Shown in pieces: positions 29,039-56,281 of a DNA stretch of 64,000 bases. The notes below the pieces were generated by a model that worked only from the letters and a program-made list of their open reading frames with translations, was not told where the DNA came from and ran no database searches. The position numbers were made by a program, and so were the translations under genes. Position 1 is the first letter of the stretch; each line of letters starts with the position of its first letter. Source of the DNA: Naegleria gruberi (lineage: Eukaryota); the NCBI GenBank assembly GCA_000004985.1, contig GG738880.1; one strand, 5' to 3'.

Positions 29039-30031
29039 TTACTCAGCATTGTCCTCCACATGTTTTAAAATAATTTCATAAATTTTGAATAACAAATTTG
29101 GAGAAACAATCTTTTCATCCTCAATTCTTGTAAGGAAATTGGAAAATACTTTCGGTATGGCAAAGTAAGTATTCGATTTAGCATTGGCGGTATTTGTTGC
29201 TGGAGTTGGAGTGTTTGCTTGCTTTTTGTCTCCCTTTTGATCAATCTCAATCAAATGTTTGAGGAATTTTCTCAGTTGACTTGCATTTTCTCCCACAACT
29301 TTATCAGCCGAATCAATAGTTGCAAATTTAATCTTACACCAATCGTGAATGGCTTGATAGAAAATTCCTGACGACAATTCAGATGCCATGTTTGGTAAAA
29401 ATTCATTGATCATGAAATTTAAATCCCATCCACTAATTATTTCAGGAGAGAATGAATCTTCCTGACTTTCCACAATGTATTTCCTCAAATTATCAATCTT
29501 GGAATAATCTTCGTGATCCTTTGCGAGATTCTCTGAGAAATTTTGCACAATGAATGGCCACATATTCACATTCAAATAATCATCGTGAATGCAATCCAAT
29601 ATTCTACTCTTCACTTTTGGGGAACACTCAAATAGTGTGAGCAATGTGAGAATAATCCTAAAATCAGTCATTGATAAATCTCTCGTCAATGAAACTCCAT
29701 AAATTAATTGTAGAAATGTAATGACAATGAAGGATGGCAAAAAGAAGGTAATTTCCTTCTTATCCGGTGATAGTGCCATCACTTTGGAAATATCCTCCCT
29801 CCTACTCGTAGCAATATCATCATTAAATAATTGTTTAAAAACAGATGCTGATTCGGAAAGTTTTTCCATGTTTAAATAAAAGACTCTATCCTTTACTTGT
29901 TCACTTAAAATTCCAAGTTGATCATACTCTGTCTTACAAATACATTTAATATCCTTCTCGGGTGTTGCTGAGTGATCATTCCAGCCAGCACATGTGAATG
30001 AAGTGTGCGGAAGGTAAACTTTTCCTGGCAT
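29039..30031 (-). CDS. Hypothetical protein with possible BTB/POZ-like domain
   Basis: 330-aa ORF. The region SESASVFKQLFNDD...KKEITFFLPSFIVITFLQLIYGVSL...LTLFECSPKVKSRILDC loosely resembles a BTB fold. It begins only 9 bp downstream of the stop of the histidine-kinase gene on the same strand. The real initiator may be an internal Met (for example MEKLSESA). Confidence 0.4.
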   Translation of the reverse strand: MPGKVYLPHTSFTCAGWNDHSATPEKDIKCICKTEYDQLGILSEQVKDRVFYLNMEKLSESASVFKQLFNDDIATSRREDISKVMALSPDKKEITFFLPSFIVITFLQLIYGVSLTRDLSMTDFRIILTLLTLFECSPKVKSRILDCIHDDYLNVNMWPFIVQNFSENLAKDHEDYSKIDNLRKYIVESQEDSFSPEIISGWDLNFMINEFLPNMASELSSGIFYQAIHDWCKIKFATIDSADKVVGENASQLRKFLKHLIEIDQKGDKKQANTPTPATNTANAKSNTYFAIPKVFSNFLTRIEDEKIVSPNLLFKIYEIILKHVEDNAE

Positions 30032-30040
30032 TTTTTTCTA

Positions 30041-33000
30041 TCATCTTCTTACAATATCGAGCACTAGCTGTCTGATATCACTTAACCTGGTTGGCTTTGA
30101 CATGAAGTATTTTACACCATTGTTTAAGAGTTGTTCCTCTTCCTTCTTATTTACAATGTTTGCTGTGAGGAGTACAATGTTTGGAGCATTTTCTTTACAG
30201 GTTTCATGAATGATTCGAGACGTGTCAAACCCATCGAGTCCATCCATGAAAAGATCTAAAAAGATAATGTTAAAGCAGCTATTCTTGACATATTTGATAG
30301 CTTCCTCACCACTTGAAGCTATTGAAATCTTTTGTAATCCAAGTTTGATTAGCATGTGTGAGAGAACCTTTGAATTAATCATGTTATCATCCACAATGAG
30401 AACAGAAAAGTGACCAGCAATGCTCAGTAATTCGTCCTCAGGTACAATTGATCGTTTCTCTATAGGTTTGACCTCTTCAATTAGGTGCGATTTGAGGGCC
30501 TGTGTAAAATCGGCAAGTTTGAAAATTGGCTTGCTTAAATATGGACCTTCTTTCAGGCAAGAAAATTGAACCATGGAAGGCAGTATATGAATCTTGTTGT
30601 GATTCAATGGCAAGTTCAATTCATGACAAATACTTTCAACATTCGAAGATTGTAAAGCTTCCAATAAATTTAAATCCACCACTATTATTAGCTTATCCAA
30701 ACTGTCCAATTTAGATAATGAGCCTTCTAAGGATTCAATAAGTGATTGTTTTGAATTGCATATTACGAAATTCTCCTCTTCATTGTAACCCGTTGCAACA
30801 TTGAAACCCCTGGAGAAATTTTTCAAACTCTGTGAAAATAAATCATTCCTATCCAGTACCATATATTGAGTATTGCGAGGAGAGCTTGTATTCTTCCACT
30901 TTGAAAAAAAGTTTACATGTTTGGAGTTATTCTTTTCCATGTTGGCACGATCTTCAAGTGAAAGTTCCTCAATTTCCTTGAAAGTTGTCTTACATGTAAA
31001 GATGAATTTTGATCCCTTATTTAATCCTTCACTTTCTGCCTTCAAGCTTCCCCCGAGCGCGTTTGAAATCATTTTTGAAATGGAGACACCTAGACCTGTT
31101 CCTTTTGGTGCATGCTGGGTGTTAAATTGGAGGAATGGTTGGCCAATTTTTGTTAAATTTTCCTTTTCAATTCCAATACCCGTATCACAAACTTGAATTT
31201 AATGTCTATGAATAATGATATTATAAATATTACAAACCTTCTATTTCCAAGTGGGCTTGTTCAGCATCAATTTTGACCAATTGTACACCAATATAAATAT
31301 AGCCAACCTCTGTAAATTTCACAGCATTAGACAATAAATTGAGTACAACTTGCTTTAGTCTCCCTTTATCACTATTTAGAATTATATTAAAAGGAAAATC
31401 TGGTTTGTAGTCAACTATGAGATCAAGTTTCTTTTTTGTACATTCCAAAACTACAAGGTCAATAACCTCTTCAATTGGTTCATTAGCATAAAAATATTCT
31501 GAATTGAGTTTCATATGTTGCTCCAATTTCATTAAATCGAGAAAATCATTTATCAATGAGAGCATAGTCTCTCCACTATTCTTAATCATGGTCAGATATT
31601 CATAATGCTCATTACTGATATTCACTGATGATCCAAGTAATAAATCAGAAAGACCCAAAACGCACACAAGTGGAGTACGTAGATCATGTGATGTATTTCT
31701 CAAAAATTGCTCCTTCTCCATAATGACTTTCTCTGATATTTTTCGTTGCTCCAACAATTCTTGCTCCACTTTTCTTCTCTGTTCCACTTCCTCTTTAAGT
31801 TTAATATTGCTACGTAATAGCTCCTCGGTTCTTTGCTCGATCCTTTGTTCGAGATTTAAATTTGCCAACTTGAGTTTTTCCTTTGCCTCTTCTCTTTCCA
31901 AATAATACTGCCAAGAAACAATGATCGTGGAACAGGTTGTGCAAATTGGCTCCAAGAATGAAATATCCTCCTCACGAAATCCTCCTTCTTTATTGGCCAA
32001 TCCAATCATGCCAACAATTTTGTTATTATGTATAAAAGGTAGTCCAAGAAAACTATTGAGGGGTGGGTGTCCTAATCCAATAATTATTCAAAAAATATAA
32101 TCAATCGATTCAATCAACCAATACTTGAACATACCTGGAGGAACATGATTAGGTGATGCAAAAGGATGAGTTTTTGGGTGATTAGTCAGTAAAGGTTGCC
32201 CTGTCATCATTACATGACCAAAGAGACTGTTCATGTTATTGAACTTAAAGCCTACTTGTGTACATTTTTGAAATAGATCGAGTGCTTCTTGAGATAATTT
32301 CGTTCTGGCGAAAGATATAGCATGTGAGTGTAGAAAAGGTTTTCCATCATCTGTGTACTTGACCTCACCAATGAAACTGTACTGGCAACGAATGAGAGAT
32401 ATGACCTCATTCAGCAAGTCTAAGAAGAGTTTGGATGGATTTTCCATATGCAAGGCTGCACTCAGTTGTGCATTATAAATTGATCTTAGTAAGTCATGAG
32501 AACGGCTAGCGTGTCCATCACTCTCCGGAGAATTTGGGGAGTGATTGGATTTGAAGGAACATTTACCAGAGTGTTTTCGGTTTATCTTGAGTTCATCCTT
32601 AAATTCTAGATCAATGGCACATGCCTTTCTATTCATACTAATTCGTTCCAATGTTTGTGTTGATTGTTGAATTTCTGCAAGGAGGTGATGTTTTCTCAGA
32701 AGTGAATCCAATTGTGATGTTGCAAATGATGTCGTTTCGTCGTCATCCATATTCGAGGATGAGGAAGACGAGGAAACACTAGATGAGGCTATTGAAAAAT
32801 GTCGTCCTGTTGAACTTGGATCAGAAATACTTTCAGAAGAGAATGGACATGAAAATCCAAAATCACCTGAAATACTTTCTCTATGATGAGGAGGTGAGAA
32901 TGCTTGCTGATGAGATGTAGGTGTGCAAACAACACTTTCCTTATGATGATTATGTTCGGTTATTAAATTAATGTCTGTTCTGTTTGTTTTATTTGTTGAG

Positions 33001-33254
33001 GAGGATGGAATAGAATCACCCTGTTGTTCCATTGCTCGCGTATTGTTGTTGTACAACTCTTGTTGAGAACAGCACTGTTGTTGAGTGACCATGCTGAGAA
33101 GAGTTTTGTTTTTTTTTTGGCTAATCGCTTTGGACATTTTAAGTGGTTTAACTACCGTAAAAGAGAGCGTTAAGAAAACAACAGTAGTTGTCACAATAAA
33201 GTCGTAAGGAAATTGTTGAGGATATGATTGAAAAATAATATGAGCGACAAACAT
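30041..33254 (-). CDS. Hybrid sensor histidine kinase (GAF - HisKA - HATPase_c - receiver); 3 exons: complement 32144..33254, 31238..32080, 30041..31191
   Basis: Exon 1 is joined to exon 2 by GTATGTTCAAG...TGGATTAG (plus 32081..32143, 63 nt, phase 1), continuing a GAF-like domain (FIGEVKYTDDGKPFLHSHAIS...G-HPPLNSFLGLPFIHNNKIVGMIGLAN). Exon 2 has the H-box FLRNTSHDLRTPL and the N-box LLSNAVKFT. Exon 2 is joined to exon 3 by GTTTGTAATATT...AAATTCAAG (plus 31192..31237, 46 nt, phase 1), giving EIE-V-CDTGIGIEKENLTKIGQPFLQF...GTGLGVSISK (G1/G2 boxes). Exon 3 ends with a receiver domain (VLIVDDNMINSKVLSHMLIKLG...IIFLDLFMDGLDGFD...LLTANI...KPTRLSDI). The true start could be the internal ATG near 33140 (MSKAISQ). 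Confidence 0.8.
31192..31237 (-). other. Spliceosomal intron (46 nt) inside the HATPase_c region of the histidine kinase
   Basis: Minus-strand GTTTGTAATATTTATAATATCATTATTCATAGACATTAAATTCAAG. Removing it restores the G1 box (EIEVCDTGIGI). Confidence 0.7.
32081..32143 (-). other. Spliceosomal intron (63 nt) inside the GAF region of the histidine kinase
   Basis: Minus-strand GTATGTTCAAGTATTGG...ATTATTGGATTAG. Phase-1 in-frame join. Confidence 0.7.
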
Positions 33255-44582: not shown

Positions 44583-45809
44583 TTAAATCTTAATATTCTT
44601 CGAGTATTTAAGGTGAAGAATGATTGCTGAATAGACAAGTAGACTGTGAGCATACTTGATGTCTGTGTTAGTGATTTCTACATAAAGACCTCCCTTCAAT
44701 TTGTCAAATGCCAACAGTTGAGCACGTTTTCTATACTTCCTTTCTTTTTCTGTTACAAGATCAGACTTGGTTCCAACTAATACCACTTCCATTGGATTGT
44801 GTTGTTCCAAATCTTTGATGTGCCTATCCAATCTATCCAAAGTTAGTGCACTATTACTTAAATCAAACATGGCAAATGCTACATGTCCTCCTCTGTAGTA
44901 TATTGGAGATAGTGTTGCAAATCTCTCTGGACCACTGTAATCCCACAATTGCAATTCAGAGATGGAATTGGGAATGAGTTTGTATCTTTGTTTCAAGAAG
45001 GAAGCTCCAATGGTCGGCATGTCTTCCTTTTGTCTACAATTAATATTCTTAATGGCACACTCCAAAGTGGATGTCTTTCCCACATAACAGTCACCAAGCA
45101 TGATTACTTTGAAAATTTGTGTCCCCTCAGTGATCATTGGTTTGTTTGGTTTCCTTTCAATTTGAATCGATGATGCTGAACTGTTATTTTTAAAGAATGA
45201 TGACAAGTAATGTAAAACTGAACTCATAACACCACTACTATTCTTTTCATCTGATTTCTTCTCAATTTCTACTTTGGAATTATTAGAAACAACTTGATCT
45301 GAATTAATAGGACTTTCCACCTTCCCAAAGAATTCACTATAACACTCTATCATTTCCAATTCAGTTCCAAACCATTCATATTCTTTCTTACAAAAATCCA
45401 TTGTAATCGTTGCATGCAAATTTTGTGTTCTAACCTCACCCATCTTGGTTACCCCAATCAATCGAGTCGCCAATTCATAAACATGTTCCTTAAACATCAT
45501 CTTGATGAAATTTCTTCCCATTCTACTTTGAAAAAGGCTTGAAAATGCTTCATCACCACCACTATTATTCGAATCATCATCAACCAATTGCGCATAATCT
45601 TGATAACGTTTCCAAATGATCGGAAGGGAAATCTCCCTCCACGACCTACAAACTCTCACCACGGAAAAGATCAAGTGGGTCATGGATAAATGTTGGAAAA
45701 TCTCTCCAGTGAGTTCATCCGGAAGGGTGGAAAATATTTCCTGGAAGGAATACTGCTTGGTTTTAGAGTTGAAAAACAGGCGAGTGAGGGCTGAATTGTT
45801 GTTGATCAT
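44583..45809 (-). CDS. F-box domain fused to a Rab-like small GTPase
   Basis: 408-aa ORF. The N-terminus has an F-box-like motif (LPDELTGEIFQHLSMTHLIFSVVRVCRSWREI). The C-terminal half is a Ras-superfamily G domain: G1 IMLGDCYVGKTS, switch II/G3 LWDYSGPERF, G4 LVGTKSDL, and a Rab-like fold (EITNTD...). It lacks the C-terminal CaaX/CC prenylation motif. Confidence 0.7.
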   Translation of the reverse strand: MINNNSALTRLFFNSKTKQYSFQEIFSTLPDELTGEIFQHLSMTHLIFSVVRVCRSWREISLPIIWKRYQDYAQLVDDDSNNSGGDEAFSSLFQSRMGRNFIKMMFKEHVYELATRLIGVTKMGEVRTQNLHATITMDFCKKEYEWFGTELEMIECYSEFFGKVESPINSDQVVSNNSKVEIEKKSDEKNSSGVMSSVLHYLSSFFKNNSSASSIQIERKPNKPMITEGTQIFKVIMLGDCYVGKTSTLECAIKNINCRQKEDMPTIGASFLKQRYKLIPNSISELQLWDYSGPERFATLSPIYYRGGHVAFAMFDLSNSALTLDRLDRHIKDLEQHNPMEVVLVGTKSDLVTEKERKYRKRAQLLAFDKLKGGLYVEITNTDIKYAHSLLVYSAIILHLKYSKNIKI

Positions 45810-45934
45810 TTTTTTTTTAAAGATTTTTTATTGTAATCTCAATGAATAGTAAATAGTCTTAATATGGAAGGTGAAAAATTTCATCATTTGGGATAAATTG
45901 AATGAACCATCATGTGGAAAAGAGGCTAATTTCT

Positions 45935-46909
45935 CTAAGGAATGAGTAAAATCTTGCCAGTACTTTTACGTTGTTCCAAAAATTCATGAGCTAGAGCTCC
46001 CTCACTCAATTTGAAATTCTTCCACTCACTAATTGTAATCTTTTTTTGAGAAATCCATGAAAATAATTCAGTGGAACGTTTCAATCTCTCCTCCCTACTT
46101 GTTAGGACATTCCACAAGTCGCCACCAGTGAGTGTTTTTGAGCCATCCATTAACATTCGTGGATTGATGAGTGGAGGATCGCCACCTGCCATTCCATAGA
46201 ATACGACAGTTCCTCCAATTTTTGTAATTTTGAATGAGTCCATGATTGTTGAACCAACTGATTCGTAGACTACGTTAACACCTATTTGATTGGTCAATTG
46301 AAGTATTTGTTCAGTCCAATTATCCTTATATAGAAAAACATGATCTGCTCCAATTTGTTTTGCAATTTCTGCCTTTTCTTCACTTGAAGTCAGTCCAATA
46401 ACTGTTCCTCCCAATAATTTGATAATTTGGGTAAGCAATTGACCAACTCCACCTGCCACTGCATGCACCACTGCAACAGTTCCCTCCTTCACAACAAATG
46501 AATCTCTTGTCAAATAATGAGCTGTCAATCCTTGCAACAAGACAGCTGCTGCCATCTCTGATGAAATCTCATCTGGCAGAGGAATTGCCTTCTCCACAGT
46601 AACTTTCACCAATTGAGCATTGGCATGAGGCACATCAGCAAAACCAACTCTCATCCCCACTCGAATCAAATCAGAGTTCACCTCACTTCCAATCTCTTCT
46701 ACAATTCCAGCCCCTTCATATCCCAAAATATAGGGAGGTTCTCCCACCAAATGATAATTTCCATTCCTTCTGTAAATATCTGCAAAATTCAAGCCAATGG
46801 CCTGAGTCCTAACCAACACATCATTCTTTCCAATTTGTGGTTTTTCCAATTCTTTCATGTAGAGAACTTGAGAAGCTTCTCCGAATCGATCAAAAACAAG
46901 AGCTTGCAT
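45935..46909 (-). CDS. NADPH:quinone oxidoreductase / zeta-crystallin-like medium-chain dehydrogenase
   Basis: 324-aa ORF. MQALVFDRFGEASQVLYMKELEKPQ, GLNFADIYRRNG and the Rossmann motif VAGGVGQLLTQIIKLLGGTVIGLTSSEEK match the quinone-oxidoreductase subfamily. Confidence 0.8.
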   Translation of the reverse strand: MQALVFDRFGEASQVLYMKELEKPQIGKNDVLVRTQAIGLNFADIYRRNGNYHLVGEPPYILGYEGAGIVEEIGSEVNSDLIRVGMRVGFADVPHANAQLVKVTVEKAIPLPDEISSEMAAAVLLQGLTAHYLTRDSFVVKEGTVAVVHAVAGGVGQLLTQIIKLLGGTVIGLTSSEEKAEIAKQIGADHVFLYKDNWTEQILQLTNQIGVNVVYESVGSTIMDSFKITKIGGTVVFYGMAGGDPPLINPRMLMDGSKTLTGGDLWNVLTSREERLKRSTELFSWISQKKITISEWKNFKLSEGALAHEFLEQRKSTGKILLIP

Positions 46910-47278: not shown

Positions 47279-48652
47279 TTATTGTTCAGTGTACTTTTTC
47301 AATTCTTGTTGGAGATTCCAATTTTCCTTTTCCAAAGCTTCAACACGTTGTCTCAATTCTTCATTTTGCTTGACCAATTCTTGTGGATTTGAAGTCTTGG
47401 CTGGCAAAACAGTCTTTGGTTGTTTGGCCTTAATTTCAACGTTTGGTTTGAAATCACGGAATTGAACATCAATTTCCTTATCTTCTGGATTCATGGAAAC
47501 CAAAGATAATTCAGCATCTTGACCAGAGAAGTAATCAGAAGCAGACAAGGCAGGAGATGGAGAAGCAGTCTTTGGATAGATATCAGATTGGAACAATTCA
47601 GACTTTCTTGGAACAGTGAATGAAATTGGAGTAATTTGATTAGCAGTCAACTTGAACAATCTGACAATTTCGTTAGAAGTAGTATCAACAGCAATCTTTG
47701 GAAGCATAGCCATACCCATTTGTGGATCAGTTGATCTAAATTCAGACAATGAGTGAATGTATGGTTCTTCATTAGTAACTTCAAAGAATCTAATGTTACC
47801 ATCACCCTTACCAGCCAAGAAGAGCAAATTAGTATCTGGATCATAGAATGGCATAATCAAACCAGAAGCCATATCAATATTAACAGTGTGCAATGGCTTT
47901 TCCAATGAACGTGGATCCCACATCATGTATTGTCTTTCAGAGGTCTTTGAGAAACCAACAGAGAACAATCTATCAGTATTGGTAATCCATTGAACACGAG
48001 ATCCCTTAGTACCACCATGACCTTCAACTTCAAGAGCAACTGCACCCTTTCTAGGATCAATAATTCTCAACTTTTTATCCTTTGAAGTGGAGGCAAACAA
48101 TGAACCATTCTTATTGAAAGAAATTGATTGAATATCTTTCCACAAATCTTTCATTTCAACTTGGCTCTTACCAGTTTCAATATCCCACAAAACAACTTTG
48201 TGATCTTGACCAGCAGTCAACAAGACATTGTTAGCAGTTGGATGGAATTCCAACAAACCAACCTTCTTCATGTGACCTTCCAATGTAACTGATGGTTCAG
48301 TAACAGTGCTTGTCAAACCATCTTGTGGAATTGACCAAATCTTGGCAGTAGCATCAACTGAACCAGTTGCCAAAATATATTGATTGAATGGATGGAACTT
48401 TAAATCCAAAACAGCACCAGTGTGGCCAGATAAAAGTGGCAAATCAGCAGCTTGTTTACCTGGAGTCTTTTGGTTCAAAACAGCAACTGAACCACCACCA
48501 CCTTGCCATGGAACAGCAACGAACAAGGCATTAGCAGCAAGCCAATTAGAATCCCAAGCACCAACATTTGGACGAATGTTTTGGAAGGCGAATTCTGCCT
48601 TGTATGGTTCACCGAAAACGTGACGATAGAGTGATGATCTGACAATGGACAT
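47279..48652 (-). CDS. Coronin (WD40 actin-binding protein with C-terminal coiled coil)
   Basis: 457-aa ORF with the coronin N-terminal signature (SSLYRHVFGEPYKAEFAFQNIRPN...), WD repeats (LSGHTGAVLDLKFHPF, WSIP, LEGHMKKV) and a C-terminal heptad coiled coil (QELVKQNEELRQRVEALEKENWNLQQELKK). Confidence 0.85.
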   Translation of the reverse strand: MSIVRSSLYRHVFGEPYKAEFAFQNIRPNVGAWDSNWLAANALFVAVPWQGGGGSVAVLNQKTPGKQAADLPLLSGHTGAVLDLKFHPFNQYILATGSVDATAKIWSIPQDGLTSTVTEPSVTLEGHMKKVGLLEFHPTANNVLLTAGQDHKVVLWDIETGKSQVEMKDLWKDIQSISFNKNGSLFASTSKDKKLRIIDPRKGAVALEVEGHGGTKGSRVQWITNTDRLFSVGFSKTSERQYMMWDPRSLEKPLHTVNIDMASGLIMPFYDPDTNLLFLAGKGDGNIRFFEVTNEEPYIHSLSEFRSTDPQMGMAMLPKIAVDTTSNEIVRLFKLTANQITPISFTVPRKSELFQSDIYPKTASPSPALSASDYFSGQDAELSLVSMNPEDKEIDVQFRDFKPNVEIKAKQPKTVLPAKTSNPQELVKQNEELRQRVEALEKENWNLQQELKKYTEQ

Positions 48653-49833: not shown

Positions 49834-52800
49834 ATGTCATCAACCCGATCAATTTTCCTTCAAATTTTCATCACTTCCTTCATTGTTTTGTTTTTTTCAT
49901 CATTTAATTGTTTTTTATTATTATCAGATAATGAACATGATAATAATGATGGAATAATCATACAATCGACAAGAGAATCAGGATTAAGTTTCGGATTGGT
50001 GGAAGCTAGTCTATTTTATGGAAATATTACACTTTCGAATATGAATTATTTGACCTCTCTTAGGTATAATCCAATTTATTATGATTATCCGAATGGAATT
50101 TTATATGCTTTTGGAGGAAATGATAGTAAGAAACGAGTTACAAAATCAGTGGCTGCTACTAAATCTTTAAGAGAAATTAGAAAAAGTAATGGAAACGTTT
50201 ACAATACAACTGTTCATTCAGATTTTGGAGATTTTCAACAAATTTCAACTCTCACCACTGCTATGGTCAATTATGCTGTTTATTCGATTAATAATCCAAC
50301 TGGTGGAAGATTAGTTTATTTATTTGGTGGAGATTCAACATTTGGAATTATTCAGGCCTCTAACTCAATTACTAATCTAAATTATTATTCACCAAATTTG
50401 GCAAATATTCCACCAACCTATTTTGCACACTTCATTACTGAACAATATATTTATTTAATTGGTGGTATTTCGAATGGTGGTGTTTATGATAATGGAATTT
50501 TCAGAGCTAATCTTTCAAGTTTATTAACTCAATGGGAAAGATTTGCTGATTTTCCAGTAACTATTGCAAAGGCAAATGCATTTCTATTGAATGGAGATGT
50601 TTATGTCATTGGTGGAAAGAATAATGAGACTGATGATAATCGGATTGTTTATTCTGTTCCATTGAATGATTTGGAAACACTTTCTGCTAATTTTATTGAG
50701 ATTGCTACCTTGAGCCGACCAACAGTTGGTTCTTCACTCGTATTGACAAGGGATTATGGTTTCCTATTTGGAGATGAGAATGCTGGTTCTGGAGTAGGTA
50801 TTGATACTGTCCTTGTTTTTCCCACAAGTGATGTTTCACAAATATTCGAAATTGGTATCAATGATTATTATTTCTCTTATGGTGTTCCAGTTGTGGTTTC
50901 TGGAACTATTGCTAGTTTCTTTGAGAGCACTCGTTCAGAACTTGTTGAAATTGAATTGGCATCAGATGCAGTTCCATATTGTTTCGGATTGGATGCAACG
51001 AATCCAGTTGCATGTTCGGGACATGGAAATTGTGTTGCCAATGAATACTGCAGCTGCAAGAGAGGATATTATGGCATGGATTGTTCAGTCACCTTTCTAT
51101 GCAATGGAACCATTTCCTATTCTCAGAATGTGTGCAGTGGCTACGGTTCTTGTGTCAATACGGATGAATGTTCCTGTAGAGCCAATAGAGATGGAAAGTT
51201 TTGTCAATTCAGTTATTGTAGTGGTATTCTTAATACTGATCCAACAGTTTGTAATGGAAAGGGATCTTGTGTGAATTCAGTTTGTCAGTGTGAGCAGGGA
51301 TTTTATGGAAGTGAGTGTAAGAATTATTCGTGTTACGAAATACCTTCCACTAATTCTTCAGCTGCATGTTCAGGACATGGCACTTGCAATTCACCAAATA
51401 ATTGCACTTGTTATGGACCTTATTCTGGAGACATGTGTCAGAGATTTTATTGTGGAATTTTCTCGAATGAAGATGCCGATATGGCTTGTAGTGGGAATGG
51501 AAAGTGTACTGAACCTGGCAAATGCACATGTAACAGTGGATTTTATGGAGCCAATTGTGAATCTTTTAATTGTTATGGTGAAATATTCAATAGTTCAAGA
51601 GTGTGTAATGGAAACGGTTCATGTATTTCACCAGATCACTGCACATGTCGAAATGGCTATACTGGATCAAACTGCTCAATTCCAACTTGTTTTGGAGAGA
51701 ATGGCACCTTGGCTTGTGATTCACACGGAATTTGTACAGCTCCTGATACATGTAATTGTACAGGAGGATACTATGGCAGTAGATGTTCAATGTTTACGTG
51801 TTTTGGAGTCGATTACAAGGAACCATCTGTTTGTTCTTCTGAAGGTTCTTGTGTAGCTCCAGATACTTGTGAATGTAATCAATTCTATACAGGAAATAAC
51901 TGTTCTCATTACACATGTTTTGATGTGAGAGATGACAATTCAACTTTAGTTTGTTCAGGAAATGGAAAATGTACCAAACCTAATGTTTGTTCATGTAAGG
52001 AGGGATACACTTCTGCCAATTGCTCTGCGTATTCTTGTAATGGTATTGGACATGATAATTCAAAGGTCTGTAACTCTGTTGGTGTTTGCACATCACCAAA
52101 TAATTGTACCTGTCAATCAGGTTACTATGGTTCTGATTGCCAAGTTTCAGAGTGTTTTGGAATTAGAAGTGATAATCAAAGTGTTTGTTCTGGAAGAGGT
52201 GAATGTAGTGGAAGAAATGCTTGCAACTGCTCTCAAAATTATTTAGGATCCCAATGTGAATTGACATCTTGTTTCGGCATTCTTTCGAATATATCCAATG
52301 TCTGTAATGGAAATGGAAAATGCATAGACTTTGATCAATGCTCTTGTAAGGAGGGATATTCAAGTCCCCAATGCACAGATTTCTATTGTGGAACTTTTCA
52401 TTTTAATAATTCTGCAACTTGCTCCGGAAAGGGAAGTTGTGTTTCGCCTAATTCATGCAACTGCTCAATTCCCTACTTTGGAAAGTATTGTGAAAACTTT
52501 AATTGTTTCAATATTTTGAATAACCAATCAACAGTTTGCTCTTCACATGGATCTTGCATAGCTCCCGATACTTGCAAATGTGAAGAAGGTTATTTGGGAC
52601 AAAATTGTTCCTCCTTTTCATGTTTCAACAAGACAGCTGATAGTGATGATGTTTGTTCTGGAAGAGGTTTATGTATTTCACCAAATACATGCATGTGTAC
52701 TGTGGAAGGGTTCCTTGGAATGGATTGCAACTTGTCATTGCCATTTGATATTTATTTGAATGTTTCGAATAGTATTGTTATTTATAGTGATGATAATCCA

Positions 52801-55800
52801 ATTATTGGATTCAAAGTTTTATCAAATTATAACGAATCTGATTTCTTTGGATACAGATTAACATCTTCTGGAATTGCTCCTGTCAATCAAAAGAGCAATG
52901 AATTTACTCTTGACACTAGTCAACTTTCTATTGGCCTTACCAATTATTTCCTAATTGCCAGATTGAAGAACAGCAGAACTTCCTCATCTCTAAAACTTTC
53001 TGTTGTGAAATTACAAAAATCCAGACCATCAATTGCAATTTCCAAGTTTGTATCTGTCAATGTTCCTGAATTTATTGTTTCTAGAAATGCCACAACATTT
53101 GACTTTTATTTATTGAACTTGACAATTAGTGGGCAGTCTGTTTCTTCATTATTTGGATGTAATTCTAAATGTTTAGCCGATTATTCTTATTAATATTTAC
53201 TTGACAGGTGATTCTTTGGATTCAGTTTACAATATTTCCTCTTTACAAAGTTCTTCCTATGTTCTTATCAGTGATGCAAGCAATTCTATTGGATTTAGTC
53301 CAATTCTTCAAATTCCATCCTTTACTCTAACTAAATCTCAATTGGAACAAGCAACATTTTTACAATTTGATTTTACAATTGGATCTGCAATTGGTTCCAA
53401 GAGAATTCCAATCATTTCTGCACCAAAACCAAAGAATGGTGTACTCACAGCTAGTAGCTCAATTTCAAGAGGAGTTGCCCTGACAGATGCCTACAACATT
53501 GCATCAGTTGAGTTTTCAGCTGCCACTCAATTGTTACCTCTCAGTTATGCTTATGCATTCTATGAGCCATCACAAGGCAGAGTTCTTAGAATGAGTTCAT
53601 TCTCTACTAGCTCAGTTGCCTCCATTTATTTACCATTCATTGCAAGCAGTGGAAACGTCAGTTCAGTTGACATTTATTTACTTGTTAAGGATGATTTGGA
53701 TTTTATTGATCAGTATTACATTTTCACTCTAGAAGTCACACCATATTTAGGAAATACTGATTCATTGTTCAATCAAACTCTTCCAGATTCTATCAAGACA
53801 GTTTTTGCGTATGATAATTCCATCAAACAGTCGAATTCTGTTGCAGATCAAGTTGTGAAAAACATTGAAATTCCAACAAATTCACCAGAAGCATCTCTCT
53901 CTGTCATTCAACAAATTCTTCCACAAAATGCCAATACTCCATCAGTAGTTAAGGAAGTTCAATCAAAAGTTCAATCATTCCTTGGCAGTGTCCAAACAAG
54001 TCAATCAGAGGAAATGAAAAAGTATGGTTTCGTAAAGAATCCACTCAGTAGTACTGCACTCCAATCGACTTTGAATCTCATTTCGGATTTATTCTCATCC
54101 AATAGGAAATATCCAGCTACTGGAAACACTTCAACAACAGAATCTCTAGTTTTATCATTTAGTAAGATTTTACTTTCGAATGCTTTACCGAAAGTTGTCA
54201 ATTCCAAAGATTCAGACCTACCAAATGTTAATTATCATTCCAGTGAAATGAATGTCACTGTCTCTTCACTAATTTTCGGCTCAACCACTGACAATGCAAT
54301 TCAACAAACTCTTCATGGAACAAACTCACAACTTTCATTGAATTTAAAGAAAGTTGCCAAACAATTTGGTGGAGAATCAACAAATATTGGATTATCATTG
54401 ATAACCTATTCTCAAAATGTTAAATCGGATAATTATTCTGCAAGTGTTCAATCTGGATCAACTCTGGTTGAATTTAAATATTATCAAGATGCACAAGTAG
54501 TGACATTGAAGGATTTGGATTCACCATTTACTTTGATATTCACACCACTCAATGATCAAATCAAACAAAATTTAACACTCAACACTACGAATGTTAAATG
54601 TATGTATTGGAATGAGGAAGTGTCAATGTGGAAATCAGATGGCTGTCAATATTCAAATTCCTCAAAAGATTCTATCATTTGTCAATGCACTCACACAACC
54701 AAATTCTCCACTTTTATTGAGTATACTTCATCCTATTCGAACACAACTAAATTGACCGAAACTGAACTATTGTACATTGCCAGCGTGTACAGTGCAGAGA
54801 TTAGTTTTGGAATAATGTTTGCAATCTGCTCTGCCATCATTCTCATTGTCTTGATTATTTACAGGAAGGAACAACCATTACTTTCAAGATTCTTGACTCC
54901 ATTCTTGGGAATGCTTGCTCTATTAGTGGAAAGTGTTTTAATTTCAATTGTGCAAAGATCTGTACTTGTTAGTCAACTCTTACCAAGTCAATCTAAAATG
55001 TGGGAATCTGGAGGCGAAACTGCCACTAATATTGTTGGAAATGTCACTATGATTATTGTAAACACATTGAATTTGACAGCCATCTTGGCATATGTCATCC
55101 AAGTTATTAGATTCCAGCTCCTCAAATATTTATATGATGTGATAGCTCAGAAGAATAATGGTCAATCATTCATGATGAAAGTATTGAGATTCGTCACTTC
55201 TAAAAAGCTTTTCGTCACTCTGATTGTCATTTCATTAATCTTTAATTTGTGCTATTGGTTAATGTGGGTCTTGTTAGTGAGATTGAGTGTTATTACTGCA
55301 TCTGTTTATACTGAGGCAGTTTCCATTTCGTATACAGTTATTATATTCGGATATAGTGTGATTATTAGTATTATAGCAATTGTGGATATTATTTCTAGTA
55401 CAAGACAAAAGAAGATTAAGAGGAGAAGAAGGTCAACTGTCAATTCATTGTCTTCAACTAGCTCAACAAAATCATCCCAGTCACTTATTCCATCAAAATC
55501 TACTCGAAGATTCTTTTATTTGGATGCTCCTTTATTTTTCAGATCTGAAATGTTCATGTATTTGGTCTGTTTTGCACTCATGATTATTCAACAAGTTATT
55601 GGATTAGTTTCTAATAATTTCAGATTTATTGATGCAAATGCTTATGAAATTGCAATTTATTTTGATGGAATTCGATTTGCATTTGAAGTATTGTACACTT
55701 GTGTGTATTTACTTGTATTTGGAGGTTTTGCTATTCTTGTACTAATTGTCTACAAGGTAAAAATTAACAAGAGAAGAAAACAACTGGTCAACCAAGATTT

Positions 55801-56281
55801 ACAAGATACTGAAATGATTGAAACCATCTCGGATGACAGAGGTTACGACCTCTTTGAACAATTCTGCATCCAAGAATTAGCTACAGAAAATCTCTACCTC
55901 TTGGAATTACTGAGATACAATCCAGAGTTTGTGGAAGGAAGAAGTATGAATGAATTGCCAAACTTTTTAGAAACCATTCATGATTTGTTCATCAAGACTG
56001 GAGCCGTTTCTGAAGTGAATATTCCATCAACAACTAGAAAGAGATTCCTGCAAATGATGAAACTTGTAAAGGAGGAAAAGAAAATGTCAGTTGAAAAGAT
56101 AACTCTTGAAGTTCAGCAATGTTTTGAAGAATTGCATGATCAAGTTTCTGTTAATTTGGGAGATACCTTTTCAAGATTTGTTCTAACAGAAATTTATGAG
56201 CAATACAGGAATCAACGTGCTTTGAAAATGGAATTGGTCAAACAAGCCAATATTGATATTGAATTGGAAAATTTGAAATAA
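49834..56281 (+). CDS. Giant predicted multidomain receptor: signal peptide - Kelch-like repeats - ~27 tandem EGF/tenascin-type repeats - GPS/GAIN-like motif - 7TM - C-terminal RGS domain; 2 exons: 49834..53158, 53208..56281
   Basis: Exon 1 (1108 codons) begins with a signal peptide (MSSTRSIFLQIFITSFIVLFFSSF). Kelch-type motifs follow (LYAFGGND, VYLFGGDS, IYLIGGIS, VYVIGGKNN). About 27 Cys-rich ~31-aa repeats (CSGHGNCV...C.C..GY.G..C) span ~50960-52740. The donor T|GTAATT at 53159 and acceptor TTGACAG ending 53207 (49 nt, phase 1) join to exon 2. Exon 2 has a GPS-like motif CMYWNEEVSMWKSDGCQYSNSSKDSIICQCTHTTKFSTF immediately before seven hydrophobic helices. It ends in an RGS domain (YDLFEQFCIQELATENLYLLELLRY...FLETIHDLFIKTGAVSEVNIPSTTRKRFLQMMK). 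Confidence 0.75.
50960..52740 (+). repeat. Coding tandem repeat array: ~27 EGF/tenascin-like modules (~93-99 nt each)
   Basis: Repeating C-x3-5-C-S/N-G-x-G-x-C protein periodicity (e.g. CSGHGNCVANEYCSCKRGYYGMDCS, CNGKGSCVNSVCQCEQGFYGSECK). The periodic codon usage generates many spurious antisense and off-frame ORFs in the track (51290..51856+, 50801..51274+, 51962..52246+). Confidence 0.8.
53159..53207 (+). other. Spliceosomal intron (49 nt) separating the ectodomain and GPS-7TM-RGS exons
   Basis: GTAATTCTAAATG...TTACTTGACAG. Phase-1 join gives ...SSLFG-C-DSLDSVYNISS... in frame. Confidence 0.7.

Follow-up and report, generated by a model that had tools for sequence, protein, structure and literature searches.

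The gene analyzed here lies on the minus strand of a 64,000-nucleotide stretch of Naegleria gruberi DNA (the window). It almost certainly encodes the protein deposited as XP_002675157.1/D2VLL9, whose true length is 408 amino acids (aa) and whose architecture is an F-box, a linker, and a GTPase domain. In sequence comparisons, this combination of an F-box, a helical linker, and a divergent, unprenylated Rab-like GTPase defined a heterolobosean-specific, paralog-rich family. Neither the gene nor its family is new, both having been described in 2021. What the comparisons appear to add to the literature is a member in Willaertia, a polarity for the Q-to-P and ITNT changes of the GTPase domain, a helical linker module, and the lack of a close ortholog of the 408-aa protein.

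In the earlier description, the Ras superfamily was re-annotated in both N. gruberi and N. fowleri (Herman et al. 2021, BMC Biol 19:142; PMC8296547). Additional file 10 (Table S8) of that study contains the entry XP_002675157.1*, flagged as corrected, assigned to class “Rab,” and given the extra domain “F-box”; the 408-aa sequence printed there, beginning MINNNSALTRLFF / MINNNSALTRLFFNSK, is identical to the one read from the window. The novelty implied by the original prediction was thus lost, with both the gene and its architecture present in that table. Additional file 4 of the same study describes three divergent Naegleria-specific Rab-like subgroups (RabX clades) whose conserved N-terminal extension is an F-box, and only one of the three is prenylated. 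The supplement also describes birth-and-death evolution with decayed members in this F-box Rab-like family, and “GTPase-dependent ubiquitination” was proposed by the same authors. The present gene is a member of these clades, carries the same F-box extension, falls in the subgroups without a prenylation motif, and shows no difference in kind from them.

The open reading frame started with an ATG and encoded 408 aa plus a stop in a single exon (Table 1). Residues 43 to 408 were 100% identical to the N. gruberi “small GTPase” EFC42413.1/XP_002675157.1/D2VLL9, a 366-aa public model for which the precomputed domains are Ras and Roc only. The public model starts at Met43, inside the F-box, and thereby cuts this domain in half. 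The 408-aa reading is the right one, because the Pfam F-box match (aa 26 to 68) spans Met43, the LP motif and the family-invariant P30 lie upstream of Met43, and the sequence contains no second ATG between the upstream stop and position 45809. Furthermore, an in-frame TAA seven codons 5' of the ATG makes a 5' extension of the reading frame impossible without an intron. Contigs encoding the 408-aa or the 366-aa protein were searched for independent contig or transcript context, and none were on record. Because the F-box is concealed in the RefSeq/UniProt entry (366 aa, “small GTPase”), automated surveys of domain architecture miss the fusion, an omission that the literature has already corrected. 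The upstream neighbor, a zinc-type quinone oxidoreductase gene (45935..46909), ends 125 bp away. The other neighbors were eukaryotic genes for a coronin (47279..48652), a dual-specificity phosphatase, a Zn2Cys6 protein, and an EGF/teneurin-like protein, the last followed by a gene for a GPS+RGS protein. The GC content of the window was about 35%, and no tRNAs were found in it. Its dense long ORFs and this GC content had raised a bacterial or giant-virus origin, which was rejected in view of the eukaryotic neighbors and the 100% match to N. gruberi.

Table 1. Coordinates in the window of the gene and of the features of its product.
Feature	Position	Strand	Basis
Complete single-exon CDS, corrected longer form of XP_002675157.1	44583..45809	-	ORF list; identity; Table S8
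In-frame TAA, 7 codons 5' of the ATG	45828..45830	-	Read from sequence
ATG of Met43, start of the public 366-aa model, truncating the F-box	45681..45683	-	Public protein begins MTHLIFSVV
F-box, aa 26-68, FSTLPDELTGEIFQHLSMTHLIFSVVRVCRSWREISLPIIWKR	45606..45734	-	Pfam; family-invariant residues; weak PDB matches
Conserved linker, aa 69-228: predicted helices at ~aa 96-124 and 137-162, then a Ser/Asn-rich disordered low-complexity stretch	45126..45605	-	Alignment; AlphaFold2
Rab-like small GTPase domain, aa 229-402 (~175 aa)	44604..45125	-	Pfam; PDB; Foldseek; model
G1/P-loop GDCYVGKTS, aa 239-247; Cys and Tyr where Ras has G12 and G13	45069..45095	-	Sequence
G3/switch II WDYSGPERF, aa 289-297; Pro294 for the catalytic Gln	44919..44945	-	CCA at 44928-44930
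G4 TKSD, aa 347-350	44760..44771	-	Sequence
Family-specific G5 equivalent EITNT, aa 378-382, instead of Rab ETSAK	44664..44678	-	Family comparison

An N-terminal F-box, as claimed by the original prediction, was matched by two Pfam profiles above their curated cutoffs, F-box-like PF12937 (35.4 bits; E value, 9e-9; aa 26 to 68; gathering cutoff, 24.3) and F-box PF00646 (26.2 bits; aa 26 to 61; cutoff, 20.5). That prediction was to be given up if no F-box profile matched, and with both profiles matching above cutoff the reading stands. Only 25 residues precede the domain. The motif residues L29-P30-D-E-L, I37-F38, and V53-C54-R-S-W57 were all present, and among these, P30, V53, and W57 were invariant across a nine-member family alignment. 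In the PDB, the only sequence matches of the N-terminal 167 aa were the F-box proteins FBXO44, FBXO6, FBXL17, and FBH1; these were individually weak (E values, 0.085 to 1.2) and shared one common register, aa 27 to 70. The F-box region of the AlphaFold2 model was of moderate confidence (pLDDT, 53 to 77). A literature search on Skp1 and cullin of N. gruberi returned nothing usable.

The interdomain segment of roughly 160 aa appeared, from the alignment and the model, to be a family-conserved, mostly helical module and not filler. The family consensus contained the linker motifs GRxFxKxLLR..ExA..L and ELExLKxYFxxF, and E150, Y157, and F161 were invariant in the nine-sequence alignment; no Pfam family matched the linker in a search down to an E value of 10. 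The AlphaFold2 model was built with this alignment as input, a single-sequence run reaching a pLDDT of only 36. The whole model had a mean pLDDT of 62.6 and a pTM of 0.68. Within the linker, pLDDT was about 76 to 86 at aa 91 to 120 and below 50 at aa 163 to 227.

The C-terminal GTPase domain was matched by Pfam Ras PF00071 (71.9 bits; E value, 6e-20; aa 234 to 367; cutoff, 21.6) and Roc PF08477 (67.3 bits; aa 234 to 350; cutoff, 27), and no Pfam families besides F-box-like, F-box, Ras, and Roc were found in the protein down to an E value of 10. The G1, G3, and G4 boxes expected of this domain were all present, and its predicted length of 230 aa had to be reduced to about 175 aa. Its Rab-like character was borne out by both sequence and structure comparisons. 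The closest PDB sequences were Ypt51 (E value, 1.4e-18), Rab5/Rab5C, Rab22, and Rab11, and the best matches of the family profile were Rab8 and Rab1. In a Foldseek comparison with the PDB, the best 50 matches were all Rabs, with target-normalized TM-scores (TMt) of 0.69 to 0.83; the Gyp1-Rab33 complex 2g77 was among the fold matches. In the AlphaFold2 model, pLDDT was 61 to 86 over the GTPase domain and about 70 to 86 over its core and the linker helix at aa 96 to 124.

The nucleotide-binding motifs were intact, namely, the P-loop GDCYVGKT, the switch I Thr (PTIGASF), DxxG (WDYSG), and TKxD (TKSD). G239, G244, and T246 of the P-loop and D350 of G4 were invariant in the family, and K245 was Lys in 8/9 members and Arg in member P0096. 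Alongside these, four features of the predicted domain are noncanonical: Pro294, the P-loop Cys and Tyr, EITNT, and the lack of a prenylation motif. The catalytic Gln that follows DxxG in WDTAGQE was absent, and the Pro for Gln noted in the original prediction was confirmed as Pro294 of WDYSGPE (codon CCA). A G5 of the ETSAK type was likewise absent, and EITNT stood at that position. The protein ends in ...LKYSKNIKI, with no CC, CxC, or CaaX prenylation cysteine and no Cys in the last six residues, as had also been predicted. Ras/Rab biochemistry is the basis for expecting slow intrinsic hydrolysis, and TBC-type RabGAPs contribute such a Gln in trans; loss of the cis-Gln alone is therefore no proof of a dead GTPase. 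Slow GTP hydrolysis by the Pro294 domain may thus reasonably be inferred, short of proof of a dead enzyme.

A word-index homolog search had recovered almost no paralogs, and an exhaustive phmmer search was run over 1.84 billion representative proteins. Eight phmmer matches were collinear with the protein as one stretch from about aa 24 to 400, covering the F-box, linker, and GTPase domain. They comprised the N. gruberi paralogs XP_002676638.1, XP_002677004.1, and XP_002674905.1; N. fowleri XP_044563075.1; N. lovaniensis XP_044550302.1; Willaertia magna KAL9657252.1; and two environmental proteins. With a W. magna member, the family is vahlkampfiid and not strictly Naegleria specific. The remaining phmmer matches listed covered the GTPase domain only. 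Multistretch matches (P0034, P0039, and others) were considered as fusion relatives and rejected as tandem Rab domains.

Across the nine aligned members, Pfam Ras was found in 9/9 and F-box in 8/9, and all 16 invariant columns of the alignment were kept in the 408-aa protein. The C termini of the members lined up to within a few residues, so that a 3' exon carrying a prenylation motif is not missing, and none of the nine ended in CaaX, CC, or another prenylation terminus. GPERF was present in five of the nine, including N. fowleri and N. gruberi paralogs, and an ITNT-like G5 occurred in the Naegleria-type members; the Willaertia member KAL9657252.1 retained canonical GQERF and ETSSK. Pro294 and ITNT are therefore retained derived states, not random damage, since they recur across Naegleria species while Willaertia keeps GQERF/ETSSK. 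In addition, G3 was broken in two members, P0096 (G3 lost) and P0068, which fits gene birth and death. The best full-length relative in the phmmer search was an N. gruberi paralog with 36% identity, and the word-index search found no protein of more than 39% identity outside N. gruberi. By these comparisons, neither N. fowleri nor N. lovaniensis appears to have a close ortholog of the 408-aa paralog, whose individual importance is therefore uncertain.

Several known systems resemble this architecture. Like the Naegleria gene, TbFRP (Tb927.7.3790; Euglenozoa; PMC3593210) has an F-box N-terminal to a Rab-related GTPase and occurs in a discobid lineage; TbFRP, however, carries an N-terminal PI3P-binding FYVE domain, whereas the Naegleria protein had no FYVE match even at an E value of ≤10. 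An ortholog in N. gruberi was sought by the TbFRP authors without success (PMC3593210); annotated models were searched, and in the model of the present protein the F-box is truncated. Speculatively, this truncation of the public model may have impeded the 2013 search for TbFRP relatives in N. gruberi.

Rab40 is prenylated and keeps its catalytic Gln. As a Rab-type GTPase fused to a cullin-RING adaptor motif, it is the best functional analogue of the Naegleria protein (PMC8129794, PMC9070665, PMC10509765); the Rab40 SOCS box forms a Cullin5 ligase, and proteins bound to the Rab are ubiquitylated (PMC8129794, PMC9070665). In Rab40, a C-terminal SOCS box (ElonginB/C-Cul5) serves as the adaptor, whereas the putative adaptor of the Naegleria protein is an N-terminal F-box (Skp1-Cul1); furthermore, Rab40 is of metazoan origin and shares no common descent with the Naegleria fusion. 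RhoBTB, which Herman et al. 2021 cite in the same context, likewise combines an atypical, poorly cycling small GTPase with a cullin adaptor domain but differs in its BTB/Cul3 pairing, its Rho lineage, and its N-terminal GTPase, the Naegleria protein being Rab-like and of the predicted F-box/Cul1 type. Neither a SOCS_box nor a BTB domain was matched by Pfam in the 408-aa protein at an E value of ≤10. Legionella effectors combining a Rab-like domain with an F-box or U-box (bioRxiv 10.1101/350777) are reported from bacteria that parasitize amoebae, including Naegleria. These, in contrast, are secreted bacterial effectors, and no relationship to the Naegleria family was detected in a narrow scan. 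That motif scan of bacterial and archaeal genomes, made with a five-sequence alignment and two narrow peptide patterns, returned only an Asgard archaeal small GTPase with 27% identity and gave no support for a bacterial link.

The best-supported model, whose probability we would place just short of even, is that the protein is an SCF substrate receptor in which the Rab-like domain recruits partners. Docking on Skp1-Cul1-Rbx1 would be the task of the F-box, with the helical linker fixing the position of the GTPase domain and the GTPase domain serving as the substrate-recognition module. Proteins binding its switch regions, as Rab effectors do, would thereby reach the E2 and be ubiquitylated. 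The intact GKT, switch I Thr, DxxG, and TKxD would keep a guanine nucleotide bound, and Pro294 together with the P-loop Cys and Tyr would slow its hydrolysis. The predicted outcome is a mostly “on,” cytosolic receptor instead of a membrane-cycling Rab. In Skp2, Fbw7, and β-TrCP, rigid helical linkers join the F-box to the substrate domain. This model leans on the sequence features above and on analogy with Rab40-Cullin5, in which the Rab domain selects substrates, and with RhoBTB-Cul3. Observations on the other side are the moderate pLDDT of the F-box, its individually nonsignificant PDB matches, the decayed family members, and the lack of a close ortholog of this paralog.

An unlikely but serious alternative is that the F-box mainly shortens the life of the GTPase, with SCF auto-ubiquitylation setting its level and output passing through ordinary effectors. 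Auto-ubiquitylation is common among F-box proteins. The F-box of trypanosome TbFRP has been proposed to play such a role; TbFRP undergoes rapid processing, and its level depends on cell density (PMC3593210). The conserved, structured linker points the other way, since it would be expected of a receptor that presents substrates and would be superfluous for a simple degron.

Somewhat less probable again is a complex outside SCF, in which the F-box would bind Skp1 with no cullin and the protein, lacking ligase activity, would regulate trafficking or a different GTPase. The F-box proteins Roy1 and Rcy1, which speak against the SCF model, work with Skp1 in this manner: yeast Roy1-Skp1 binds and inhibits the Rab5-like Ypt52 without forming an SCF, and Rcy1-Skp1 has a role in endosomal recycling (PMC3084679). 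The GTPase domain is nearest Rab5/Ypt51 in sequence, which would fit this reading. Non-SCF F-box proteins are a minority, however, and sequence does not separate the SCF mode from the non-SCF mode.

Lower still in probability is a drifting, dispensable paralog, a pseudo-GTPase in a rapidly expanding and decaying family, in which Pro294 and the unusual G5 would mark early decay. The broken G3 of P0096 and P0068 and the lack of a close ortholog in N. fowleri and N. lovaniensis are in keeping with such drift, but the 408-codon frame is intact, the 16 invariant columns are kept, GKT, Thr, DxxG, and TKxD are undamaged, and GPERF and ITNT are common across species, as conserved derived states would be. 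Finally, a gene-model artifact, with the F-box and the GTPase being two genes or being joined by an intron or misassembly, is effectively refuted: although the public model starts at M43 and has only Ras/Roc domains, the reading frame is single and uninterrupted with a stop seven codons upstream, the F-box match spans M43, manual re-annotation (Herman et al. 2021) gives the same 408 aa, and the intron or misjoin against which the original prediction asked to be checked is contradicted by eight collinear full-length homologues from four species and environmental contigs.

Beyond the SCF-receptor model itself, a possible but tentative extension is that the GPERF clade consists of GTP-locked, soluble SCF receptors that recognize Rab-effector-like proteins via their switch regions, which would make the clade a Cullin-1 equivalent, of independent evolutionary origin, to the metazoan Rab40-Cullin5 ligase. 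If so, dozens of paralogs would provide nucleotide-gated ubiquitylation at the interface between the cell and its environment. More speculatively, the family may share ancestry with TbFRP, with an F-box-GTPase ancestral to Discoba and an N. gruberi relative missed in 2013 via the truncated model. If the SCF reading is true, these proteins would represent a second, independent invention of the principle embodied by Rab40 and RhoBTB, and they may give access to lineage-specific biology of the genus to which the lethal pathogen N. fowleri belongs.

The public N. gruberi model of the F-box–Rab-like GTPase encoded at 44583-45809 on the minus strand (XP_002675157.1/D2VLL9) starts at Met43 of the 408-aa protein (region 45681-45809 of the window, minus strand), leaving out 42 codons that contain the LP half of the F-box. 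As a consequence of this omission, the domains listed in the databases for the protein are limited to Ras/Roc. The model was corrected by Herman et al. (2021, BMC Biol 19:142), and the RefSeq and UniProt entries are still uncorrected.

Several other genes in the window encoded recognizable domains. These included a second F-box protein, which had no further recognized domain and was unrelated to the F-box–Rab-like gene, and an intron-less coronin gene located two genes upstream of the latter. The teneurin-type and GPS/RGS ORFs were both on the plus strand and were separated by a gap of 8 bp; they may constitute a single gene, whose product would be an adhesion-GPCR-like receptor that carries its own RGS domain. 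In addition, a run of minus-strand ORFs (29039-33254) containing HisKA and receiver domains looks like a hybrid histidine kinase broken up by short introns or frame breaks.

Some other ORFs with recognized domains in the window
ORF	Coordinates	Strand	Domains
Second F-box protein, 321 aa	23871-24836	-	PF00646 (26.3 bits, aa 6-43, N-terminal)
Receiver ORF	30041-31072	-	Response-regulator receiver domain
HisKA ORF	31230-32009	-	HisKA
Coronin, 457 aa	47279-48652	-	DUF1899, WD40, WD40_4, C-terminal coiled coil
1119-aa ORF	49834-53193	+	Teneurin-type EGF repeats
1026-aa ORF	53201-56281	+	GPS autoproteolysis motif, C-terminal RGS domain

A scan of bacterial and archaeal genomes with two narrow peptide patterns from the family found no Legionella relative, and its sole prokaryotic match was in a Promethearchaeota MAG (JAHPZA010000004.1, L001 2001-3592), where it corresponded to an Asgard archaeal small GTPase with 27% identity to aa 232-390 of the 408-aa protein. 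A 578-aa protein from a 1791 bp Logan contig (P0202) had a differing F-box–GTPase layout, in which a Ras domain (aa 80-252) came directly after an F-box-like domain (aa 2-46) and approximately 325 more residues made up the rest of the chain.

The F-box Rab-like clades were described as having no close relatives beyond Naegleria (Herman et al. 2021, BMC Biol 19:142). An exhaustive phmmer search identified a full-length non-Naegleria family member, Willaertia magna KAL9657252.1 (P0144). The canonical WDTAGQERF and ETSSK motifs are retained in this protein; the Naegleria members have GPERF and ITNT.
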